A stretch of DNA of 64,000 nt from Escherichia coli (GCF_003334765.1 NZ_QOWT01000002.1), one strand, 5' to 3'; shown: positions 18,017 to 46,215, numbered from the stretch's first letter. The notes: generated by a model not told the origin, from the sequence alone. Made by a program: numbers and translations.

Positions 18017-18295
18017 TCAGGCCTCGAAGAATTCGCCGTTCTTCGGGGCTTTTTCTTTTGTCAGCATTCTGGCTACTTGCTTAGCCAGTTCCGCCAACTC
18101 CTCGTCTTCAACACCCCATTCAAGAACAGCAAGAAGCATTCCCATTTTGGGGATGAAGCTGTCTTTCCATCGCGAAATTTGCGATTCATTAATCCCTAAC
18201 GCGTCGGCAACCTTTCGCTGACCACGTACAGCAATTCGATTCAGGATGTTGCTTGTAATTGCATTCGCTTTCTTGCGAGTACTTGTAAGTTGCAT
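18017..18295 (-). CDS. CII-like transcriptional activator
   Basis: ...[46 protein letters not shown] resembles lambda CII ...[25 protein letters not shown]. Confidence 0.8.
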
Positions 18296-18353
18296 ATGTA
18301 AGTATTTCCTTAACTAATAAGAAGTTATGCGCATCAACTTATGCGCGTTGTAT

Positions 18354-18397
18354 TCCCGCATTTCGGCGGGAATGAGGACCATGACTGTTAAAGAGCG
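18354..18397 (-). promoter_or_regulatory. nutR: boxA CGCTCTTTAACA (18386..18397) and boxB hairpin TCCCGC-CGAAAT-GCGGGA (18354..18371)
   Basis: Read on minus strand just downstream of cro; boxB identical to the nutL copy. Confidence 0.6.
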
Positions 18398-18403
18398 GTG
18401 TTA

Positions 18404-18604
18404 CTATTTGTTTTTCTTGTTGCTTGGGAAAGGACGAACTTCCTCTCCAATCACACTGCCATCAGGCTTTACCGTAACCATAATGTTACGGCCTGCCAGA
18501 ATGGCCTTGCTGATAGCGCACTGGATTACACCAAAGTCACTGGCTGCTTTAGCCTGTCCATGGATTTTGGCGTAATCGGCAAGTGTCATTCGAATCATAT
18601 GCAC
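18404..18604 (-). CDS. cro: Cro repressor
   Basis: ...[59 protein letters not shown] resembles lambda Cro. Confidence 0.85.
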
Positions 18605-18629
18605 TCTCCGTTATTAACCATGAACAAAG

Positions 18630-18693
18630 AATACTACAGGTATTCAAAGCAATCAATACTCAGGGTATTTTTAGTTTAAGTACCTTAGCTATT
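18630..18693. promoter_or_regulatory. OR operators: AATACTACAGGTATT (18630..18644), AATACTCAGGGTATT (18655..18669), variant AGTACCTTAGCTATT (18679..18693)
   Basis: 15-bp palindromes at about 24-25 bp spacing between divergent cro and cI. Confidence 0.6.
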
Positions 18694-18704
18694 AGAATTA
18701 AGCT

Positions 18705-19421
18705 ATGGAAAATAAAAAATCACTGACGACAGAACAGCTCGAAGACGCTAAGCGGCTTAAGGCTTTGTATGAGTCAAAAAAGAAAGAATTGGGAATAACC
18801 CAATACTCAATCGCTGATGAACTGGGTATCACCCAAGGAGCGGTAGGGCATTATCTTAATGGCAGAAACGCGCTAAACGTTGAGGTCGCATCTGGTTTTG
18901 CACGTTTGTTGCAAGTCTCAATTGCTGATTTTAGCCAGTCAATTGCTGCCAAGGTTGCAGAACAGGCAGAAAGCCTTAAGAGCGATGCCAACGTAAGGTA
19001 TGCAGGGGAATACAGAGCAGGAAAGAGGTATCCGGTGTTAAGCAGTATCCAGGCTGGCTCGTGGTGTGAAGCATGCGAACCATACACCATTAAAGACATA
19101 GATGTTTGGCTTGAGTCTGACGCGCATATTCAAGGTAATGCGTTCTGGCTTAAAGTGGAAGGTGATTCAATGACGGCACCGGTTGGGTTAAGCATTCCAG
19201 AGGGAACATTCGTTCTTTTCGATACCGGAAGGGAGGCGATCAACGGCAGCTTGGTCATAGCAAAACTTTCTGACTCTAACGAAGCAACATTCAAGAAGCT
19301 GATAATCGACGGCGGAAATAAATACCTCAAGGGACTTAACCCTGCATGGCCTCTCGTGCCAATCAATGGAAACTGCAAGATTATAGGCGTTGCAATTGAG
19401 ACAAAACTAAGGCTGGTTTGA
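18705..19421 (+). CDS. cI: CI repressor (HTH plus S24 LexA-like autopeptidase domain)
   Basis: 238 aa; N-terminal HTH (QYSIADELGITQGAVGHYLNG), C-terminal ...KVEGDSM...ATFKKL; no SD before ATG, consistent with a leaderless pRM transcript. Confidence 0.85.
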   Translation: MENKKSLTTEQLEDAKRLKALYESKKKELGITQYSIADELGITQGAVGHYLNGRNALNVEVASGFARLLQVSIADFSQSIAAKVAEQAESLKSDANVRYAGEYRAGKRYPVLSSIQAGSWCEACEPYTIKDIDVWLESDAHIQGNAFWLKVEGDSMTAPVGLSIPEGTFVLFDTGREAINGSLVIAKLSDSNEATFKKLIIDGGNKYLKGLNPAWPLVPINGNCKIIGVAIETKLRLV

Positions 19422-19440
19422 TCACGCAAGGGGGGCGCTT

Positions 19441-19809
19441 ATGGTTGGAACCGCTATAGCAAGCTTTTTGGGGATGTTGGCAATCTCAACAATTTACGGC
19501 TTAGCGCATGCTTTTATTGCGAAATCTCTATCAGAAAAAATAAGCCAGGCTTGGGCGCATAGATCAGCTCGTTTCATGATTCTAGTGGTCATAGCAATAC
19601 AAGGGATATCTGCATTTATCCTCTATGGATCAAGCTTATACCTGTTGTATCAAGGAGCGACATTTACGCCTTACACCAGTGATTACGGAACTCTATACGA
19701 TGGTAGTGAAGACATCTCTATGGCTTGGATCGTCTTTGGTTTATCTATGGCCGTGTCTGTTGTAGCAGACATCATTAAGGTAATTCTCGTCTTAACCTTC
19801 GCTGACTAA
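19441..19809 (+). CDS. Small 3-TM membrane protein co-transcribed with cI (rex-locus position); candidate exclusion/abortive-infection factor
   Basis: 122 aa, three hydrophobic helices, strong SD AAGGGGGG 19 bp after cI stop. Confidence 0.6.
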   Translation: MVGTAIASFLGMLAISTIYGLAHAFIAKSLSEKISQAWAHRSARFMILVVIAIQGISAFILYGSSLYLLYQGATFTPYTSDYGTLYDGSEDISMAWIVFGLSMAVSVVADIIKVILVLTFAD

Positions 19810-19895
19810 CCCATAATCCCGGCAGCAATAGCTATCGGGATCCACTTCACATATCCCGCATAAAAAGCACTGAACAAGCAGATACCGAAAAAATA

Positions 19896-19980
19896 AATAT
19901 CCTTTGTATTCATTTGTTTATCATTATTTCATCAAAAATAAATACCTTGGGTATTTACACAATAAAATACCTACAGTATT
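19896..19980. promoter_or_regulatory. OL operators: AATATCCTTTGTATT (19896..19910), AATACCTTGGGTATT (19941..19955), AATACCTACAGTATT (19966..19980); pL region
   Basis: Same AATAC-N5-GTATT palindrome family as OR, upstream of the N-like gene. Confidence 0.55.
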
Positions 19981-20028
19981 CTTTAGCCATCAGCAGGACG
20001 CTGGAAGCCAAACGGAACAGATTGGCAG

Positions 20029-20069
20029 GCTCTTTAACATTGATGGGATTGTCCCGCCGAAATGCGGGA
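20029..20069 (+). promoter_or_regulatory. nutL: boxA GCTCTTTAACA (20029..20039) and boxB hairpin TCCCGC-CGAAAT-GCGGGA (20052..20069)
   Basis: rrn/lambda-like boxA followed 12 nt later by 6-bp stem hairpin identical to nutR boxB. Confidence 0.6.
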
Positions 20070-20176
20070 ACCAAAGAGTAGTTGGCTTTGGGGTGACGTG
20101 AAGTGCAGCTGCACGACGGCAACCGGAAGATAAGCACCCGGCGCGTCACCGCCAAAGCCAATCATCGGAGGTCAAC

Positions 20177-20473
20177 ATGATAATCGTTACTTATCTGGCT
20201 GATGATAACACCAGAAATCGCCGCAGAGCACGCAGACAGGCTCAACGTGAACAGGCAATGCAAGAACAGCGACTTGCGCGAAAAATTGCGCTAAAGCTCT
20301 CTGGTTGCGTCAGAGCAGATAAAGCAGCATCACTCGGAAGCCTTCGCTGCAAGAAGGCAGAAGAAGTCGAGCGTAAACAGAACCGTATTTACTACCGCAA
20401 GCCACGCAGTGAAATGGGTGTGACTTGTGTTGGTCGCCAGAAAATGAAATTAGGCAGCAAACCACTTATTTGA
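20177..20473 (+). CDS. N-like transcription antiterminator (arginine-rich motif)
   Basis: 98 aa; N-terminal ARM DDNTRNRRRARRQAQREQ; strong SD GGAGG; first gene after pL/nutL. Confidence 0.65.
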   Translation: MIIVTYLADDNTRNRRRARRQAQREQAMQEQRLARKIALKLSGCVRADKAASLGSLRCKKAEEVERKQNRIYYRKPRSEMGVTCVGRQKMKLGSKPLI

Positions 20474-20481
20474 GGTGAGAT

Positions 20482-20952
20482 ATGACAAAATCATGGAGCG
20501 TACCTTTTCCTGAATCAGAAACTGAACATGATGGAATGCCTGTTTTCTGGAGATTCCAAGCGACAGTTGAAGAAGATGGAATCAAAATATTCGCACTTCA
20601 ATATATAGCTTTTCATCAGACAGAGCATTATGCATGGTTGGTTCCTGCGCATTGGATTGTTGATTTTAAACCAGCACCAAATCAGTGGTTACAGGAATGG
20701 AAACAAAAGAGAAATAGATATGCAATTAAGAAAGTAGCAAAAAATGCAGAAAGATCTTTTGCATTCCCAACGAAGAAACTTGCCATTGAAAGTTTATTGC
20801 GCCGGAAGAAATACCATTTAATGAGAATAAAACAAGATTTGGCTGTTGTATCAACTCTTGTTGATGGGATGAAAAATATTGATACATCAACACCAGATAT
20901 TGAATATAACTTTGGACACAACCAAGAAACAGAAAATTGGGTATTTTATTAG
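20482..20952 (+). CDS. Hypothetical protein, AT-rich, unknown function
   Basis: 156 aa ORF immediately after the N-like gene; no recognisable motif. Confidence 0.5.
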   Translation: MTKSWSVPFPESETEHDGMPVFWRFQATVEEDGIKIFALQYIAFHQTEHYAWLVPAHWIVDFKPAPNQWLQEWKQKRNRYAIKKVAKNAERSFAFPTKKLAIESLLRRKKYHLMRIKQDLAVVSTLVDGMKNIDTSTPDIEYNFGHNQETENWVFY

Positions 20953-21056
20953 TACGAATAAGCACTGTGTATTCATTCCAACGAGTGAATACACGGAGCA
21001 ATGTCGCTCGTAACTAAACAGGAGCCGACTTGTTCTGATTATTGGAAGTCTTCTTT

Positions 21057-21084
21057 GCCCTCCGATGTGAGGGCTTTTTTATAT
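21057..21084 (+). terminator. Rho-independent terminator (GCCCTC-CGATGTG-GAGGGC + T6)
   Basis: GC stem followed by TTTTTT; candidate tL1 overridden by N. Confidence 0.65.
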
Positions 21085-21164
21085 GCATACCAATAACGCT
21101 TCACGAGAGGTGTTTATTCATGAGCGTAAACGCTGATTAATGAACGCAGTTGATAGGATATAAA

Positions 21165-21677
21165 ATGGCATTTATAAAGATTCTTGAATTAATTTCCCTA
21201 AGTGAGATTAATAATGTTGTCAAATATAACCCTATTTCTGGTGAGTTCACATGGCTAAAATCTTATGGAGCAAGAAAGATAGGTGGAACTGCCGGAACAA
21301 TAACAACAAGCGGCTACTTAAGGATTTTCATTAACGGAAGACACTATGCTGCACATAGACTTGCATGGATTATCACTTTCGGTGTTGAGCCTGAAGGTAT
21401 TATCGACCATATAAATGGCATAAAGACAGATAACAGAATTTGCAATCTGAGGCTTGCAACTTACTCACAGAATTCAATGAATAGTAAAATAAATACCCTC
21501 AACAAATCAGGTTGCAAAGGAGTCACATGGAAGAAGGAAAGTAGAAAGTGGGCTGCCTATGGGAAATTAAACGGGAAGAAAAAACATCTAGGGTACTTTA
21601 ATGAATTAGAAGATGCCAAAAAAGCTTACTGCGACTTTGCCAGAAAGCATCACGGCGAATTCTACAGGAGCAAATAA
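21165..21677 (+). CDS. HNH endonuclease with AP2-like DNA-binding domain
   Basis: HINGIKTDNRICNLRLATYSQN HNH motif; C-terminal GVTWKKESRKWAAYGKLNGKKKHLGYFNELEDAKKAY AP2-like; ORF track starts at TTG 21150. Confidence 0.7.
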   Translation: MAFIKILELISLSEINNVVKYNPISGEFTWLKSYGARKIGGTAGTITTSGYLRIFINGRHYAAHRLAWIITFGVEPEGIIDHINGIKTDNRICNLRLATYSQNSMNSKINTLNKSGCKGVTWKKESRKWAAYGKLNGKKKHLGYFNELEDAKKAYCDFARKHHGEFYRSK

Positions 21678-21811
21678 TGAATGAATATATTTTAGCGGGT
21701 AGCGGCGTCATGTCCGCTTTCTACCCGCACGAATCTGAATTATCACGCCGAGTTAAACAATTAATCAGAGCAGCAAAGAAACAACTGGAGGCGTTATGCG
21801 CAATGAAATAG
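21677..21811 (+). CDS. CIII-like small protein, 44 aa (not in ORF track)
   Basis: MNEYILAGSGVMSAFYPHESELSRRVKQLIRAAKKQLEAL resembles lambda CIII MQYAIAGWPVAGCPSESLLERITRKLRDGWKRL. Confidence 0.45.
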   Translation: MNEYILAGSGVMSAFYPHESELSRRVKQLIRAAKKQLEALCAMK

Positions 21812-21948
21812 CCATTAATCACCAGATGCTTCGTGCTGCACAGAACAAAGCAGTAATAGCCAGATTTATTGGTGATTCCAAAATGTGGCTTGAAGCAAAT
21901 AAAGCGATGAAATCAGCTATCAACCTTCCGTGGTATCGCAGGAAATGA
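21796..21948 (+). CDS. Kil-like small protein, 50 aa (not in ORF track)
   Basis: MRNEIAINHQMLRAAQNKAVIARFIGDSKMW...; directly follows cIII-like ORF; motif recalled from lambdoid Kil, unverified. Confidence 0.35.
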   Translation: MRNEIAINHQMLRAAQNKAVIARFIGDSKMWLEANKAMKSAINLPWYRRK

Positions 21949-22029
21949 GTTTTACAGATAACTGGTCAGACGAAGAATTCATTCGTCAGATGAACAAAAT
22001 GCTCAATCAGCACAAAGAACAGGAGAAAG

Positions 22030-22341
22030 ATGATGATTCTGACTCTGAATGATAAGCGTGAAATATCGCAAATAATCGCAAGTTTTACTGATGAAGATTA
22101 CGAGCGAATCAACAGTGAAGTTGATCGCCTCTGCAAACGTTGCGACCCAATAAGCGAAATGCTTCGCTCATATAAACCAGATGAACACACTAAGGACGCT
22201 ATCGACTGGCTGGAAGATGATGACTGTAACTATCAGGAAAAAGCCGCTGAATGGTTCTGGGATGCAATAACCGAAAGAGTTAAGGCTGAATATGCCTTCG
22301 CAATATTTAAACGCAGACACATTTTTGGAGAAGCTGCATGA
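22030..22341 (+). CDS. Hypothetical acidic protein upstream of recT
   Basis: 103 aa ORF with stop overlapping recT start. Confidence 0.5.
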   Translation: MMILTLNDKREISQIIASFTDEDYERINSEVDRLCKRCDPISEMLRSYKPDEHTKDAIDWLEDDDCNYQEKAAEWFWDAITERVKAEYAFAIFKRRHIFGEAA

Positions 22342-23240
22342 GCAATATCGTTGAATTCGTTAAACAGCAAGAGCAGTTATTCTGCGGAGCATTGACTGAA
22401 CAGACGGTGACATGGGCTAAGGAAAGCCAGTTTGCAATTCAGTATTTCCAGAAAAACGATTACCTGGCTAAAACAGCACTGGCAAATCCAACCAGCGCAC
22501 AGAACGCCATCATCAATGTTGCGGCGATCGGCATCACCTTAAACCCGGCCAGCAAACTGGCTTATCTGGTTCCTCGCGACGGCATGGTGTGCCTTGATAT
22601 CAGTTACATGGGATTACTTCACCTTGCACAGTCGACAGGATCAATTAAGTGGGGGCAATGCAAACTGGTGTACTCAAACGACACCTATGAATCAAACGGC
22701 CTTGATTCAGCACCAACCCACAAATACAACGCATTTGGTAAGCGAGGCTCTATTGTTGGTGGTTATTGTACGGTTAAAACAGCAGATGGTGACTACCTCA
22801 CTGAAGAAATGAGTCTGGCAGAAATTAAAGCTGTGGAAGCAACGAGCAAGGCAAAGAATGGACCGTGGAAGACATTCTGGGAAGAGATGGCGCGTAAAAC
22901 AATAGTTAAACGCGCCAGCAAATACTGGCCTAAAGCCCAGCGACTGGATAATGCCATTCACCTGCTTAACGAAGATGAAGGTATGCATCAGGAACCAGTT
23001 ATGCCGCACAAATCAGAGGAAGATATCCGCGAAGATGAACGGAAACGCCAGCAGGAAATTATGGAAAAAGCACAACTTCTTTGTGATGAAATGGCTCAGG
23101 CAGAAAACATGGATGATTTGAAGCGATATTTTGCAGAAGCATATCGCCTGACATCTGGAATGAAATTGCAGCAGAACGTACAAGCCATTTACATAGAATG
23201 CAAAGCGAAACTGGAGGTTGCCAGTGAGCAAACTGTATGA
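22338..23240 (+). CDS. recT: RecT-family single-strand annealing recombinase
   Basis: ...KNGPWKTFWEEMARKTIVKRASKYWP resembles E. coli RecT ...NNGPWVTHWEEMAKKTAIRRLFKYLP. Confidence 0.8.
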   Translation: MSNIVEFVKQQEQLFCGALTEQTVTWAKESQFAIQYFQKNDYLAKTALANPTSAQNAIINVAAIGITLNPASKLAYLVPRDGMVCLDISYMGLLHLAQSTGSIKWGQCKLVYSNDTYESNGLDSAPTHKYNAFGKRGSIVGGYCTVKTADGDYLTEEMSLAEIKAVEATSKAKNGPWKTFWEEMARKTIVKRASKYWPKAQRLDNAIHLLNEDEGMHQEPVMPHKSEEDIREDERKRQQEIMEKAQLLCDEMAQAENMDDLKRYFAEAYRLTSGMKLQQNVQAIYIECKAKLEVASEQTV

Positions 23241-23706
23241 AATTGCCAATGAATACGCAAAATTGATGGATTCAGATTTAGAACCAGAGATGATTGCTGA
23301 CACAATAGAAGGCATGGAAGGAGAATTTACCGATAAAATAGAGCAACTTCTTTCCGTCATTAAAAATGAATCTGGTTATGCTGAACGCCTCAAGGAAGAG
23401 GCAAAGTCACTGAATGAGCGAGCCGCAGTAATTCAAAATAAGATTGACAGCATCAAATCATATATAGCGTCATCGCTTGAAATGGTTGGCAAGAAAAATA
23501 TTCGAGCAGGTATTCACCAGGTAACAATCCGCAAACCGTCAGAAACTGTAGAAATCATCGACTCAAGCGCCCTTCCTCCTGAATACCTTGAGTTTGAAAC
23601 GACAATTAAAGCCGACAAACTGGCAATCAAGCACCAACTAAAAGCAGGAATAAATATTCCCGGTGCTCAACTCAAGGTTGGGAAACCTTCACTTCTTATC
23701 AAATAA
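23218..23706 (+). CDS. Phage protein, coiled-coil N-terminus (Gp157/Mu-Gam-like?), unknown function
   Basis: 162 aa ORF overlapping recT end. Confidence 0.45.
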   Translation: MPVSKLYEIANEYAKLMDSDLEPEMIADTIEGMEGEFTDKIEQLLSVIKNESGYAERLKEEAKSLNERAAVIQNKIDSIKSYIASSLEMVGKKNIRAGIHQVTIRKPSETVEIIDSSALPPEYLEFETTIKADKLAIKHQLKAGINIPGAQLKVGKPSLLIK

Positions 23707-23717
23707 CGGTATCGCCT

Positions 23718-24032
23718 ATGAAAAAGACTCCATGGGAGAAATGGGAAGTCGATTTCTTGCGCGAAGTAGCGGCGACAATGCCAGTTGAAGTTATCGCTGA
23801 AAAACTGGAAAGGACTGAAAAAGCAGTAATGGCAAAAGCAACAAGGATTGGCGCTGACATTGTTAGCCGACTTCGTGGAAGACGATGGACAAGAGCCGAA
23901 GTATCACTTTTCGGTAAGTTCTCCGCAGAAGAAATAGCAATTGCAACCTGCCGATCAATTTATTCAGTAAGAGCTATGCGATACAAGCTAAAAAAACTCG
24001 ATGAAGAAAGAGCAGGCATACGAATAAATTAA
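23718..24032 (+). CDS. Hypothetical phage protein
   Basis: 104 aa ORF in early-left operon. Confidence 0.45.
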
Positions 24033-24212
24033 CAAAGAGGAATTAATCATGAGAGGGCTTGCATACAATCCCGGCATTCTTCCGGCAGAAATGATTATTC
24101 GCCAACGCGTAAAGCCAATGCCATCGAGAGAGGAATTGCTTAAGAGAAATAGTTTCGGTTCTGTTAATGACAACAAATATCTGAATGCGATGTTGCGTAA
24201 AGGAGGCAAGCA

Positions 24213-24512
24213 GTGAGTGTATGTCTTATTGATAAACGTCGACGTGGGCAACAAATACCATCTGTTGGAATGCCGAATCACACATGGTTTTGCGTACTTG
24301 ATATCGATGGTATGGATGCGTTGGTTGACACTCGTCATTACTGCGATACCGCAACAGCTACTCCGGCGAAAGCAAAGAAAATGGCTGCTCTGATAGAAAA
24401 CTGGACTCCACCTGATGGTTGGTGCAATGGGAATGATCGAGATTGGCACGAAAAAATGAAGGGCTATATCTGCGATTTTTTACGTAAATGCAACGGCTTC
24501 AGGGTGATGTGA
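24213..24512 (+). CDS. Hypothetical phage protein (Cys/His/Trp-rich)
   Basis: 99 aa ORF. Confidence 0.4.
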
Positions 24513-24513
24513 T

Positions 24514-24921
24514 ATGAACAAGATTGACTATCAGGCACTGCGTGAAGCGGCAGAGAAAGCCGGTGAAGATAAGTGGCAGGCTAAAAAAATAAATGGTGAT
24601 TTTTTCGTTATTCGTCACGGTAGTTATACAAGACAGCATGGCTACACATCGTATCAACCCATTGCGGAGATTGATTGTAAGCAAGTCCGGGATTTTGTTG
24701 CCAAGGCTAATCCGGCTACCGTGCTGGAATTACTGGATGAACTGGAAGCAGCAAAAAAGCGCATTGCAGAACTGAAAGCGCGGGAAATACTGCTCCCGGA
24801 ACGTAGCAGCATGCTTCATCGAACAGATTTTCACGATGATTACCAAACGGTAATGGCATACAAAGTTTCTGAAGTCATCGATGCAATCCGCGCTACTGGC
24901 ATTCGCATCAAAGGAGAGTGA
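24514..24921 (+). CDS. Hypothetical phage protein (Ead/Ea22-like region)
   Basis: 135 aa ORF, 1-bp gap from previous ORF. Confidence 0.45.
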   Translation: MNKIDYQALREAAEKAGEDKWQAKKINGDFFVIRHGSYTRQHGYTSYQPIAEIDCKQVRDFVAKANPATVLELLDELEAAKKRIAELKAREILLPERSSMLHRTDFHDDYQTVMAYKVSEVIDAIRATGIRIKGE

Positions 24922-26343: not shown

Positions 26344-27279
26344 TTATGAAGTGGTTTTTACCTGTTCTCTTAGCCAGATAATAAACGCTTCAATTTTTGG
26401 CCACTGCCTGCCCGGTAATGTGGTGATGTAATAATGCTGATGGCATTTCACCGTCATATCGCCAAACGGCGCGACGAGCTCACCACTGGCAAGCCTTTTT
26501 TGTACCAGGCGTTTTCTTCCCATCGCCACCCCAATATGATTCATCGCGGCAATAACAGCTAAATCAGAACGATCAAAGCCAATTCCAGAAGATGTCGGCA
26601 AATTAACCGCATAATGTTGCGCCCAACTATGCCATTCATCCGTACCGGAGTCGTTGCTCCATGCCTGTCTGTCATGGAGCAACGTACAGTGACACAGGTT
26701 AATTACCGTGTTGGTTAAAGCATGTCTTTGAGCGTATTCCGGGCTACATACTGGCAGGATTTCTTCATCCATCAGAAAGTGATGAGTGAGTTGCGCTGAC
26801 GGCGCATCATCAAAGTAGATCGCCAAATCGATTCCGGCACGTTGCAGATTGACGTTGTCATTACCAGTGAGCACGGTGAGCGAAATAGACGGATACCGGC
26901 GTGTAAAGTCACCTAATGCGGGCACCAACCAGCATTGGGCGATAGAGGGCCGGGAATACAGAGTTAACGTTCCCGATAACTCCTGATTTTTGATATCAAG
27001 AATTTCCTGGTTCAGGGTATCCAGCGACGATTTTAGCGCCCAATAAACACGTTTCCCCTCGTGCGTTAATTCCACTTTGCGATGGGAACGAACAAACAAC
27101 TGAATGCCCAATTCTTCTTCCAGCTGATTGATACGGTGACTTACCGCACTGGGGCTCAGCGACAATTCCTCTGCCGCCAGGGCGAAGGACTGATGCCTGG
27201 CAGCCACTTCAAAAGTATGCATTTTTGATAATTGCCAGCCGTTAAGCAGCCGATTTCTTATTTCACGAAGGGGTTCCAT
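26344..27279 (-). CDS. dsdC: LysR-family activator of D-serine utilisation DsdC
   Basis: Recognised; ORF 26344..27285, start probably MEPLREIRN. Confidence 0.9.
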   Translation of the reverse strand: MEPLREIRNRLLNGWQLSKMHTFEVAARHQSFALAAEELSLSPSAVSHRINQLEEELGIQLFVRSHRKVELTHEGKRVYWALKSSLDTLNQEILDIKNQELSGTLTLYSRPSIAQCWLVPALGDFTRRYPSISLTVLTGNDNVNLQRAGIDLAIYFDDAPSAQLTHHFLMDEEILPVCSPEYAQRHALTNTVINLCHCTLLHDRQAWSNDSGTDEWHSWAQHYAVNLPTSSGIGFDRSDLAVIAAMNHIGVAMGRKRLVQKRLASGELVAPFGDMTVKCHQHYYITTLPGRQWPKIEAFIIWLREQVKTTS

Positions 27280-27496
27280 AATCACCTCATTTTTCGCTTA
27301 AGTGTAAAAAAATAGCGGCAAAATTTCAGCTATGAGATGAGCTAAAGTAAACCATATCTCAATTCACCTTCATTTTTAGATGTAAATCACTCCATTGATG
27401 CAATTTACCTCATGTGAAAGGCAAATTTTATCGTTTGTCAGCCTGCGTTGTTTTTTTGTCCAATATCATCAGGTTAATCACAGGGGAAGGTGAGAT

Positions 27497-28834
27497 ATGC
27501 ACTCTCAAATCTGGGTTGTGAGCACGCTGCTTATCAGCATCGTGTTAATTGTACTGACCATCGTGAAGTTCAAATTCCACCCGTTTCTGGCGCTGTTGCT
27601 GGCCAGCTTCTTCGTGGGAACGATGATGGGCATGGGGCCACTGGATATGGTAAATGCTATTGAAAGTGGAATTGGCGGAACGCTGGGGTTCCTCGCAGCG
27701 GTTATCGGCCTTGGCACGATACTGGGAAAAATGATGGAAGTATCCGGGGCCGCAGAAAGAATTGGTCTGACACTTCAACGCTGCCGCTGGCTTTCAGTTG
27801 ATGTCATTATGGTGCTGGTTGGCCTGATTTGTGGCATCACGCTGTTTGTTGAAGTGGGCGTCGTGCTATTGATTCCTCTGGCTTTTTCAATTGCCAAAAA
27901 AACCAATACCTCATTATTAAAGCTTGCCATTCCGCTATGTACCGCATTGATGGCAGTGCACTGCGTGGTTCCTCCACATCCGGCTGCTTTATATGTTGCC
28001 AATAAGCTGGGCGCAGATATCGGTTCGGTGATCGTCTACGGTTTGCTGGTTGGGCTGATGGCATCACTGATCGGTGGCCCACTTTTCCTTAAATTTCTGG
28101 GTCAACGACTGCCCTTTAAACCTGTACCCACAGAGTTTGCAGATCTCAAAGTTCGCGATGAAAAAACACTACCGTCATTAGGCGCAACGTTATTCACCAT
28201 ACTGCTACCCATTGCGCTGATGTTGGTTAAAACGATTGCCGAATTGAATATGGCGCGTGAGAGTGGTTTGTATATCTTGGTTGAGTTTATTGGCAACCCT
28301 ATCACTGCCATGTTTATCGCCGTGTTTGTCGCCTATTATGTGTTGGGTATACGCCAGCATATGAGCATGGGGACGATGCTCACACATACGGAAAATGGCT
28401 TCGGTTCTATTGCTAATATTTTGCTGATTATCGGGGCCGGAGGCGCATTCAACGCCATTTTAAAAAGCAGCAGTCTCGCTGATACGCTGGCAGTTATTCT
28501 CTCCAATATGCATATGCACCCGATTCTTCTGGCCTGGTTAGTGGCTCTTATTCTGCATGCGGCAGTGGGCTCCGCTACCGTGGCAATGATGGGGGCAACG
28601 GCAATTGTTGCACCCATGCTGCCGCTGTATCCCGACATCAGCCCGGAAATTATTGCGATTGCTATCGGTTCAGGTGCAATTGGCTGCACTATCGTTACGG
28701 ACTCGCTTTTCTGGCTAGTGAAGCAATATTGCGGCGCTACGCTCAATGAAACATTTAAATACTATACGACAGCGACATTTATCGCTTCAGTCGTCGCTCT
28801 GGCGGGCACATTCCTGCTGTCATTTATCATCTAA
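27497..28834 (+). CDS. dsdX: D-serine transporter DsdX (GntP family)
   Basis: 445 aa polytopic membrane protein; synteny dsdC-dsdX-dsdA. Confidence 0.9.
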
Positions 28835-44699: not shown

Positions 44700-44942
44700 C
44701 TACCGCCTGCCATACCCCACCATAAAGCGAATCATCAAGCCACAAGCCGGGGCAAGAAACATAAATATCCCCGTCACTAGTTCATTACCGCCAGTTAACC
44801 ACATGGTGAAGTAATAAATGAGTGCAGCGAGGATCACCATGCCGAAGAAAGAAGAGACCGCCGATACCACGTTCAGTACCTGACCGATGTAGCCGCTTAC
44901 GCAGACAATACACAGGGCGAGAAACATCCATAAATTAATCAT
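44700..44942 (-). CDS. yfdY: Small inner membrane protein YfdY
   Basis: 80 aa, two TM helices. Confidence 0.75.
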   Translation of the reverse strand: MINLWMFLALCIVCVSGYIGQVLNVVSAVSSFFGMVILAALIYYFTMWLTGGNELVTGIFMFLAPACGLMIRFMVGYGRR

Positions 44943-45294
44943 AGCTCAACCTCCTGCCGCGCTAAAAAACCTGTAACTTCAGTCACTTTAATAGTAAGAC
45001 AATCCTTAACCTCTGGCAATTTTTGCTAAGCATCAATGAAAACAGCATGTTAAATGCAAGACTGTTGTGTACGGAAAAATATTTACTTTGCACGATTAAT
45101 AATCAGTAGCTGAAAGCAGTCAGCGAGTGATAAAGTACAGATACCGCCTTCATGCTCCTCGTGGTTATGTCCTGACTAGTCTTTACACTCTTTACAGGAA
45201 CCATTGTCGTACATGATGGCCCAACCAATTGAGTGTACCGCTGTCGACATGGAATCTTCTGCGATACAACAATTCGTATCTACAGAAGGTAACT

Positions 45295-46215
45295 ATGTTT
45301 CCACAATGCAAATTTTCCCGCGAGTTTCTACATCCTCGCTACTGGCTCACATGGTTTGGGCTTGGTGTACTCTGGCTTTGGGTACAGCTTCCTTATCCTG
45401 TTCTCTGCTTTCTCGGCACGCGTATTGGCGCAATGGCGCGACCATTCCTGAAACGTCGTGAATCTATCGCCCGTAAAAACCTGGAACTTTGTTTCCCGCA
45501 GCATTCTGCGGAAGAACGCGAGAAGATGATTGCCGAAAACTTTCGTTCACTCGGCATGGCGCTGGTAGAAACCGGCATGGCATGGTTCTGGCCCGACAGT
45601 CGCGTACGTAAATGGTTTGATGTTGAAGGGTTGGATAACCTTAAACGCGCACAAATGCAAAATCGCGGCGTAATGGTTGTCGGCGTCCATTTTATGTCGC
45701 TGGAACTGGGCGGCCGCGTGATGGGACTGTGCCAACCAATGATGGCTACCTATCGTCCACATAATAATCAGCTGATGGAATGGGTGCAGACCCGTGGGCG
45801 CATGCGCTCTAACAAAGCGATGATCGGCAGAAATAATCTGCGCGGCATTGTCGGTGCACTGAAGAAAGGTGAAGCGGTATGGTTTGCTCCCGATCAGGAT
45901 TATGGTCGTAAAGGCAGCTCCTTCGCGCCGTTCTTTGCGGTGGAAAATGTCGCCACAACCAATGGCACCTATGTTCTCTCCCGTCTCTCTGGCGCAGCCA
46001 TGTTGACCGTAACGATGGTAAGAAAAGCGGATTACAGCGGATATCGTTTGTTCATCACCCCAGAGATGGAAGGCTACCCGACAGATGAAAATCAAGCCGC
46101 TGCCTATATGAACAAGATTATCGAGAAAGAGATCATGCGCGCACCGGAGCAGTACCTCTGGATCCACCGTCGCTTTAAAACGCGCCCGGTGGGAGAATCG
46201 TCGTTGTACATTTAA
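45295..46215 (+). CDS. lpxP: Lipid A palmitoleoyltransferase LpxP
   Basis: Recognised; ORF 45229..46215, start probably MFPQCKFSREF. Confidence 0.9.
   Translation: MFPQCKFSREFLHPRYWLTWFGLGVLWLWVQLPYPVLCFLGTRIGAMARPFLKRRESIARKNLELCFPQHSAEEREKMIAENFRSLGMALVETGMAWFWPDSRVRKWFDVEGLDNLKRAQMQNRGVMVVGVHFMSLELGGRVMGLCQPMMATYRPHNNQLMEWVQTRGRMRSNKAMIGRNNLRGIVGALKKGEAVWFAPDQDYGRKGSSFAPFFAVENVATTNGTYVLSRLSGAAMLTVTMVRKADYSGYRLFITPEMEGYPTDENQAAAYMNKIIEKEIMRAPEQYLWIHRRFKTRPVGESSLYI

Follow-up and report, generated by a model that had tools for sequence, protein, structure and literature searches.

Whether neighbouring accessory genes in a prophage operon form a single acquired unit, or have instead been assembled piece by piece, is the question raised by positions 20,482 to 21,677 of a 64,000-nucleotide (nt) stretch of Escherichia coli DNA (GCF_003334765.1, NZ_QOWT01000002.1; the whole stretch is hereafter the window). 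These positions and their surroundings belong to the immunity and early-left (pL) region of a lambdoid prophage, whose leftward operon lies on the + strand. An initial annotation had described here, immediately downstream of the antiterminator gene N, an open reading frame (ORF) of 156 amino acids (aa), an intrinsic terminator and an HNH endonuclease gene, and had combined them into one small accessory island. All three elements were found at the coordinates given and both genes are AT-rich (ORF156 has a GC content of 35.2% and the HNH gene one of 37.2%, versus 46.5% for the window), but the grouping into an island was not supported. The region is better explained, with a probability of roughly 0.6 for the explanation as a whole, as a stretch of the pL operon built of three independent modules: ORF156, a homologue of the small RNA (sRNA) PreS/LPR1 and an HNH cassette. 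The arrangement is present in a deposited genome, as positions 18165-24677 are 100% identical to contig JH660541.1 of GCA_000158415.2.

The independence of the modules is seen most directly in their distributions. Among 5426 complete E. coli genomes, ORF156 was found in 598 (~11%; 834 copies with 95–99% DNA identity) and the HNH gene in 10 (0.2%; at least 99% identity). ORF156 occurred without the HNH gene in ~590 genomes, the HNH gene sits behind at least eight upstream arrangements other than ORF156, and a single complete genome carries both, with DUF2528/Ea10 between them. Moreover, between the two genes lies a conserved module of sRNA and terminator that recurs in lambda, 434, 21, 933W, HK97 and P22-like phages and is found in phages with neither gene; this PreS module is the boundary between two moron slots, one from N to PreS and the other from PreS to cIII. 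A joint acquisition and joint function of ORF156, terminator and HNH gene would be in keeping with the adjacency of the two genes and their shared AT-richness, but because their distributions are independent and they occupy different slots split by PreS, this explanation lacks support and is very improbable.

The HNH gene encodes a predicted free-standing endonuclease with an AP2-like domain, as initially proposed, with both domains matched in Pfam (HNH_3, PF13392, E = 3.6e-15, full length at 1-46 of 46; AP2, PF00847, E = 3.7e-6, residues 116-162). Its HNH motif (DH81-82, N90/N94, N103) aligns with the DH...N...N motif of I-HmuI (PDB 1U3E). The ORF was listed as 21150-21677 from a TTG start, although translation more likely begins at the ATG at 21165, which is preceded by AGGA and would give a protein of 170 aa. 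The gene falls within phrog_99, a very large phage HNH-AP2 family, and a tblastn search with the protein matched 3,528 phage records, mostly of virulent phages, at no more than 54% aa identity. This particular allele was absent from the 50,697 phage records searched, the best match (54% aa identity) being in virulent phages. It represents a familiar kind of gene in a new allelic form and at a new location, and PGAP already names it 'HNH endonuclease'.

The gene is not conserved at this position in all relatives, in line with the mobility that had been suggested for it, and its occurrence in 10 of the 5426 genomes is sporadic. Two of the copies are shortened by IS1, and the eight of full length all retain an intact HNH motif and AP2 domain. 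In 10 of 10 distinct contexts the gene directly abuts cIII–kil. The genes upstream of it vary (ORF156; ORF156 with DUF2528/Ea10; ral with a P22-type gene; Nmad5; another HNH gene; several unknowns), as do the recombination genes downstream (RecT, Erf, or Rad52 with SSB). A BLAST comparison of the window with the 10 HNH-positive loci delimited the block common to all of them to 21085-21994, with at least 98% identity. Some HNH-positive prophages also encode another HNH_3 protein, of 138 aa, upstream of PreS (E. coli Combat2C1, L007:3349-3765; also L026:2483-2899). Relatedness of this second Combat2C1 protein to the window HNH protein was considered and rejected (BLASTP E = 0.03), and the Combat2C1 annotation shows no N gene in the interval from cI to the 138-aa HNH gene.

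The junctions of the cassette were defined against the HNH-less alleles of HK97 and O26 11368, in which the junction sequence is GAGGCGTTTTCGTTATGCAATCAAATATAAGGAGTTACCCATGATGCACTTTCAGCTCGCGGGTAGC. Between the anchors ACCAATAAYGCTTCAC and GCGGGTAGC, the empty site measures 60 nt and the filled site 590 nt, of which 11 nt are shared, so that 579 nt stand in place of 49 nt. The 49 nt lost take in the cIII leader with its AGGAG ribosome-binding site and the first six codons of the gene. In their place, the cassette brings a new ribosome-binding site within the 3′ end of the HNH gene and a cIII start codon that shares bases with the HNH stop (TAATG). The cIII protein begins MNEYIL with the cassette versus MMHFQL without it, codons 2-6 (NEYIL) being specific to the cassette, and the NEYIL allele was exclusive to the 10 HNH-positive genomes, while a further 353 genomes have the same cIII with another 5′ end and no HNH gene. 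The cassette thereby rewires how translation of cIII begins, and cIII regulates the choice between lysis and lysogeny. The linker that precedes it (GCATACCAATAAYGCTTCAC, 21085-21104) recurs after each moron terminator in the PreS–cIII interval, in 611R6, 22KM0354, HK97 and HK620, and resembles the recombination boundary sequences for which the Sf6 and HK620 annotations use the label 'bsq'. Copies of the linker also occur at L001:3053-3072 and L004:3935-3954.

Because its presence is sporadic and confined to one fixed site, its catalytic HNH motif and attached AP2 DNA-binding domain are intact, and the neighbouring gene of the carrier is recoded at the insertion point, the cassette bears the signature of homing and fits a free-standing homing endonuclease gene. 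Under such a scheme, the HNH gene would be expressed only through N-antiterminated read-through of tL2a, and the most likely substrate for nicking or cutting by the enzyme would be the HNH-less cIII allele of another lambdoid phage, co-resident or co-infecting. The cassette would then be copied in during repair from the flanking PreS and cIII–kil homology, and the altered 5′ end of cIII, predicted to confer resistance to the nuclease, would protect the carrier. Several points weigh against homing. Both the nuclease activity and its target are predictions; the PreS and cIII–kil flanks are so conserved that homologous recombination could move the cassette without a nuclease; a co-conversion gradient was looked for around the cassette but none is visible, because HNH-less alleles (e.g. 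that of HK97) are identical in the flanks; and purifying selection on the nuclease is not measurable, because all copies are at least 99% identical.

The cassette could accordingly be viewed as a passive moron moved by general homologous recombination, with a nuclease that is inactive, non-specific or irrelevant. The near-identity of the flanks in hundreds of prophages, and their coincidence with known mosaic boundaries, are what such transfer would predict, and the PreS–cIII interval is shared by morons that encode no nuclease (Ea10/DUF2528, a sie gene and a 77-aa ORF). However, the HNH motif and AP2 domain have stayed intact in 8 of 8 full-length copies from complete genomes, and the cassette differs from the other morons in two hallmarks of homing, as it extends into cIII and recodes its first codons, and is always cIII-proximal, even beside another moron; passive transfer is therefore considered unlikely. 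If domesticated, the HNH-AP2 protein would be something other than purely selfish, serving the phage either by marker exclusion of lambdoid competitors or by acting as a sequence-specific DNA-binding repressor. In favour, E. coli is often polylysogenic for lambdoid prophages with an HNH-less cIII allele (353 genomes, up to four copies each), and AP2 domains of prophage accessory loci can silence host defence genes, the AP2-containing CasPR anti-CRISPR proteins being reported as DNA-binding repressors (bioRxiv 10.64898/2026.02.23.707548). Yet the HNH gene is rare (0.2% of genomes), the CasPRs are Bacillota proteins that combine CapR with AP2 and have no nuclease domain, and exclusion is compatible with homing and so extends it rather than offering a true alternative. 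Domestication in place of homing is thus quite improbable, and a homing endonuclease gene remains the preferred explanation of the cassette.

An intrinsic terminator does follow ORF156, as initially annotated, and is the only + strand terminator-like site in 19400-22400 (21057-21074 and its T-run), but its description as a plain terminator did not hold: by homology, it is the tL2a end of a conserved functional PreS/LPR1 module and not an accessory element. In lambda, the ral–ea10 intergenic region is the LPR1/PreS locus, with tL2a as its 3′ end, and encodes an Hfq-dependent sRNA of ~88 nt that is processed to ~68 nt and is produced in the lytic cycle only; it stimulates translation of dnaN, represses alaS and promotes replication of lambda DNA (bioRxiv 10.1101/2024.10.31.621285). 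The window is 93% identical to this lambda intergenic region over 88 nt (approximately 20996-21083, with the 5′ end placed according to the published length of ~88 nt), and the PreS body is mostly invariant in an alignment of lambda, 933W, HK97 and HK620. More widely, the 130-165 nt that lie 3′ of ORF156 are 94–97% conserved in 327 phage records, among them lambda, 434, 21, 933W, HK97, HK620, Sf6 and P22-like Salmonella phages; the region is annotated as tL2A/tL2B in HK620 and as boundary sequence bsq4 in Sf6. The homologue ends in a GC-rich stem (21057-21074) followed by T6, which is an Hfq-type 3′ end. Two differences count against the assignment: the body of the window copy carries one substitution (A to G at 21048; GGAAGTCTT vs GGAAATCTT) that is absent from lambda and from 11 other loci compared, and its terminator loop differs from that of lambda. 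An Rfam scan of 19400-22400 (E up to 1) gave chance eukaryotic matches only, Rfam having no PreS model. Naming the terminator as part of the PreS sRNA corrects the annotation of the interval, although PreS itself has already been published.

The stretch 20950-21090 folds into three hairpins (z = -4.7). The first of these, hp1 (20965-20996), is kept in lambda, HK97, 933W and HK620, while E. coli GN25 (L005:3815-3845) has in its place a hairpin that matches in geometry but is unrelated in the sequence of its stem. Retention would thus seem to act on structure rather than sequence, and the hairpin may serve the upstream mRNA as a processing or 3′-end element. Inside the PreS homologue, a boxA-like sequence (CGCTCGTAA) occurs at 21005-21013, and reads exactly CGCTCTTAA in E. 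coli 8GC (L006, ~3856); it may reflect NusB/E binding or coincidence.

The third module, ORF156, is a member of phrog_1636 (E = 1.4e-111; full length, 1-156 of 156 positions), and its product shares 98–99% aa identity with HK97 gp45, 933W L0079 and H-19B '17'. It was found in 88 phage records, for the most part Shiga toxin (Stx)-converting phages such as 933W, phi24B, H-19B and BP-4795, and most sequenced Stx phages carry it. Prophages of Cronobacter, Pectobacterium, Brenneria and Rosenbergiella carry homologues with 55–85% identity, which in every case belong to the early-left operon, though they are not constantly adjacent to N, and which retain 40 invariant columns. Given these columns and a confident structural model (pLDDT 95.6 on a 52-sequence alignment), ORF156 is judged to be a real gene. 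A profile search of 1.84 billion representatives with the ORF156 family returned 87 proteins, most of 130-165 aa and matched over most of their length. Where the context of these distant homologues was readable, including in virulent Pantoea phages, they lie in arrays of small early genes, and their neighbourhoods contained only small early genes of unknown function. The superfamily corresponds to PHROGs 1636, 13631, 25384 and 28215, consists of proteins of 130-165 aa and spans temperate and virulent phages of Gammaproteobacteria. Salmonella phage vB_SpuS_NX263 (MW427215.1) has homologues of both ORF156 (64% aa identity) and the HNH-AP2 protein (49%), unlinked at 27040-27510 and 44939-45382, and the former places the ORF156 family beyond E. 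coli lambdoid phages.

The upstream edge of the ORF156 module can be located by comparison with HK97 and 933W. In these phages a ~55-nt non-coding remnant of a window-type N 3′ end precedes gp45/L0079, whereas in the window N is intact and ORF156 starts 8 nt after its stop. Since the remnant is found upstream of gp45/L0079, the module boundary is placed inside the C-terminal codons of N. The remnant (L003:2005-2062; L011:1472-1529; window 20419-20481) is identical to the window-type N 3′ end.

No recognisable motif had been seen in the 156-aa protein initially, and wider searches bore this out at the level of both sequence and fold. Pfam gave no match for ORF156 or for any of the 52 family members, NCBIfam gave none, and PADLOC (Cas1_II, E = 0.01) and a profile search of PDB sequences gave non-significant matches only, so that no significant similarity to known anti-restriction or anti-defence families was found in Pfam, PADLOC or NCBIfam. 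The model matched no PDB fold, Foldseek against AFDB50 returned only uncharacterised proteins of the same family, the related PHROGs are all of 'unknown function', and nothing relevant was found in literature on gp45/HK97, L0079, the protein accessions or the locus tags. In the predicted structure, the N-terminal part forms a beta-sheet and is acidic, the centre is strongly basic (17 K/R in residues 61-130) and contains a helix of 33 residues, and the tail is acidic and conserved; no catalytic-looking residues are conserved across the wider family. Two specific assignments were rejected. For the centre, an AP2/integrase-type fold of three strands plus a helix was considered, but structural comparison with solved domains of the AP2 and Int N-terminal kinds gave no significant similarity, and a SieB-type exclusion function found no family match, the gene lying 8 nt from N with no promoter-like site upstream. 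The ORF156 family is thus catalogued but uncharacterised, and its confidently predicted orphan fold is mildly interesting.

What can be said of its function comes from its place. ORF156 is an accessory gene and does occupy the variable, ral-like slot attributed to it, bounded by N and tL2. Relatives have other genes there: ral and sieB in lambda and HK140, an Nmad5 gene in E. coli 8GC and ral in GN25. A + strand scan of 19400-22400 found no terminator-like site between N and ORF156, and because it lies behind pL with no such site after N, ORF156 should be immediate-early. Its transcription would then begin at once when the phage infects or is induced, with no need yet for antitermination by N, and would be repressed in the lysogen. 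Position and timing tentatively point to a non-enzymatic protein of early host takeover or counter-defence, and our best guess is a binding protein that would neutralise a host defence or take over a host function early in lytic growth. A broader proposal, that the whole superfamily represents a new fold whose members inhibit a host defence or an essential host process as immediate-early proteins, in the case of ORF156 from the start of induction of 933W-type Stx phages, is given a fairly low probability. Two considerations weigh against a counter-defence or takeover role: it is drawn from position and timing only, and the basic centre fits a nucleic-acid-binding regulator equally well. Such a regulator, controlling the early programme of the phage itself (pL transcripts, N/tL function or lysis–lysogeny) in place of any host target, is the main rival role for ORF156. 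It would suit the long helix of the basic centre, the conserved pattern 'K..K..RSFAF.tk..A...l..RK', which loosely recalls strand-strand-helix DNA-binding modules, and the frequent adjacency of ORF156 to N, the end of which overlaps the module boundary. We regard this regulatory role as somewhat unlikely, and early takeover or counter-defence as possible.

The features of the wider region are listed in Table 1. The pL candidate is weak evidence for a promoter, as such consensus matches are no commoner than in shuffled sequence, whereas the position of the putative nutL appears to match that of the nutL annotated in HK620 and HK140. On the 3′ side of kil lie a 103-aa ORF and then RecT. The 122-aa membrane-like protein directly after cI, at the position of rexAB in lambda, belongs to phrog_6534, a family of unknown function, occurs in HK140 and 611R6 as well, and is a candidate for an exclusion or defence moron expressed in the lysogen.

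Table 1. Features of the immunity and early-left region in the window.
Feature	Position	Strand	Basis
cro	18404-18604	-	
cI	18705-19421		
Membrane moron, 122 aa	19441-19809		phrog_6534
Candidate pL promoter, TTTACA-17-TATTCT	19954-19982	+	Consensus scan, 9/12 positions; between cI operon and N
Candidate nutL: boxA-like GGCTCTTTAACA and boxB-like hairpin CCCGC-CGAAAT-GCGGG	20028-20068	+	Read from sequence
Antiterminator N, 98 aa	20177-20473	+	phrog_271, E 4.7e-35; relatives annotated N
ORF156, 156 aa; HK97 gp45 / 933W L0079 / H-19B '17' family	20482-20952	+	
Hairpin hp1, ~12 bp	20965-20996	+	Fold of 20950-21090
PreS/LPR1 homologue including terminator tL2a	20996-21083	+	Stem 21057-21074, T-run 21075-21080
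Conserved linker GCATACCAATAACGCTTCAC, mosaic boundary sequence	21085-21104	+	
HNH cassette, 579 nt, in place of 49 nt of HNH-less allele	21116-21694	+	Filled vs empty site alignment
Predicted HNH_3 + AP2 endonuclease, 170 aa	21165-21677	+	Pfam; phrog_99, E 1.5e-68
cIII, 44 aa	21677-21811	+	phrog_550, E 2.3e-10; PF02061 on identical gene in other loci
kil, 50 aa	21796-21948	+	phrog_2055, E 1.2e-35

All three modules are of ordinary or already catalogued kinds, and current understanding is not overturned. The HNH locus nevertheless provides a clean pair of filled and empty sites for studying homing in temperate lambdoid phages. The ORF156 product is expected to be one of the earliest proteins to appear after induction, but no function has been assigned to it and no fold relative found. 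A defined role for it, whether in counter-defence or takeover, would bear on the induction biology of Stx phages.

Each module has a recognisable counterpart in known systems. ORF156 has the same length of 156 aa as HK97 gp45, 933W L0079 and H-19B '17' and the same place downstream of N and upstream of tL2/PreS. It shares the N–tL2 position with lambda Ral and SieB, and would share early pL-driven expression with ral, but Ral has 66 aa compared with 156 aa, and ORF156 has no sequence or profile similarity to either protein. Furthermore, sieB has its own promoter, while ORF156 has none of its own and no predicted membrane segment. The PreS homologue is in the same operon, orientation and position upstream of cIII as lambda PreS, but lambda PreS has ral upstream and ea10 downstream, while the window copy is flanked by ORF156 and the HNH cassette.

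The window HNH protein shares its two-domain architecture and HNN-type motif with the phage HNH-AP2 homing endonucleases, which number thousands of homologues in virulent Enterobacterales phages, often with several copies per genome. In contrast, the window gene belongs to the pL operon of temperate lambdoid prophages and has no more than 54% identity to any deposited phage copy. Its nearest solved relative is the homing nickase I-HmuI of phage SPO1 (PDB 1U3E), which differs in being intron-encoded and in having a different C-terminal DNA-binding part. The arrangement as a whole resembles the 'intron-less homing' of the T4 seg and mob genes, in which an endonuclease gene lies between conserved genes and is patchy among close relatives, and in which sequence changes in a neighbouring gene would protect the carrier, as those in cIII would here. 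The nuclease families are, however, GIY-YIG for Seg and HNH for some Mob proteins, compared with the HNH-AP2 architecture predicted from sequence for the window protein.
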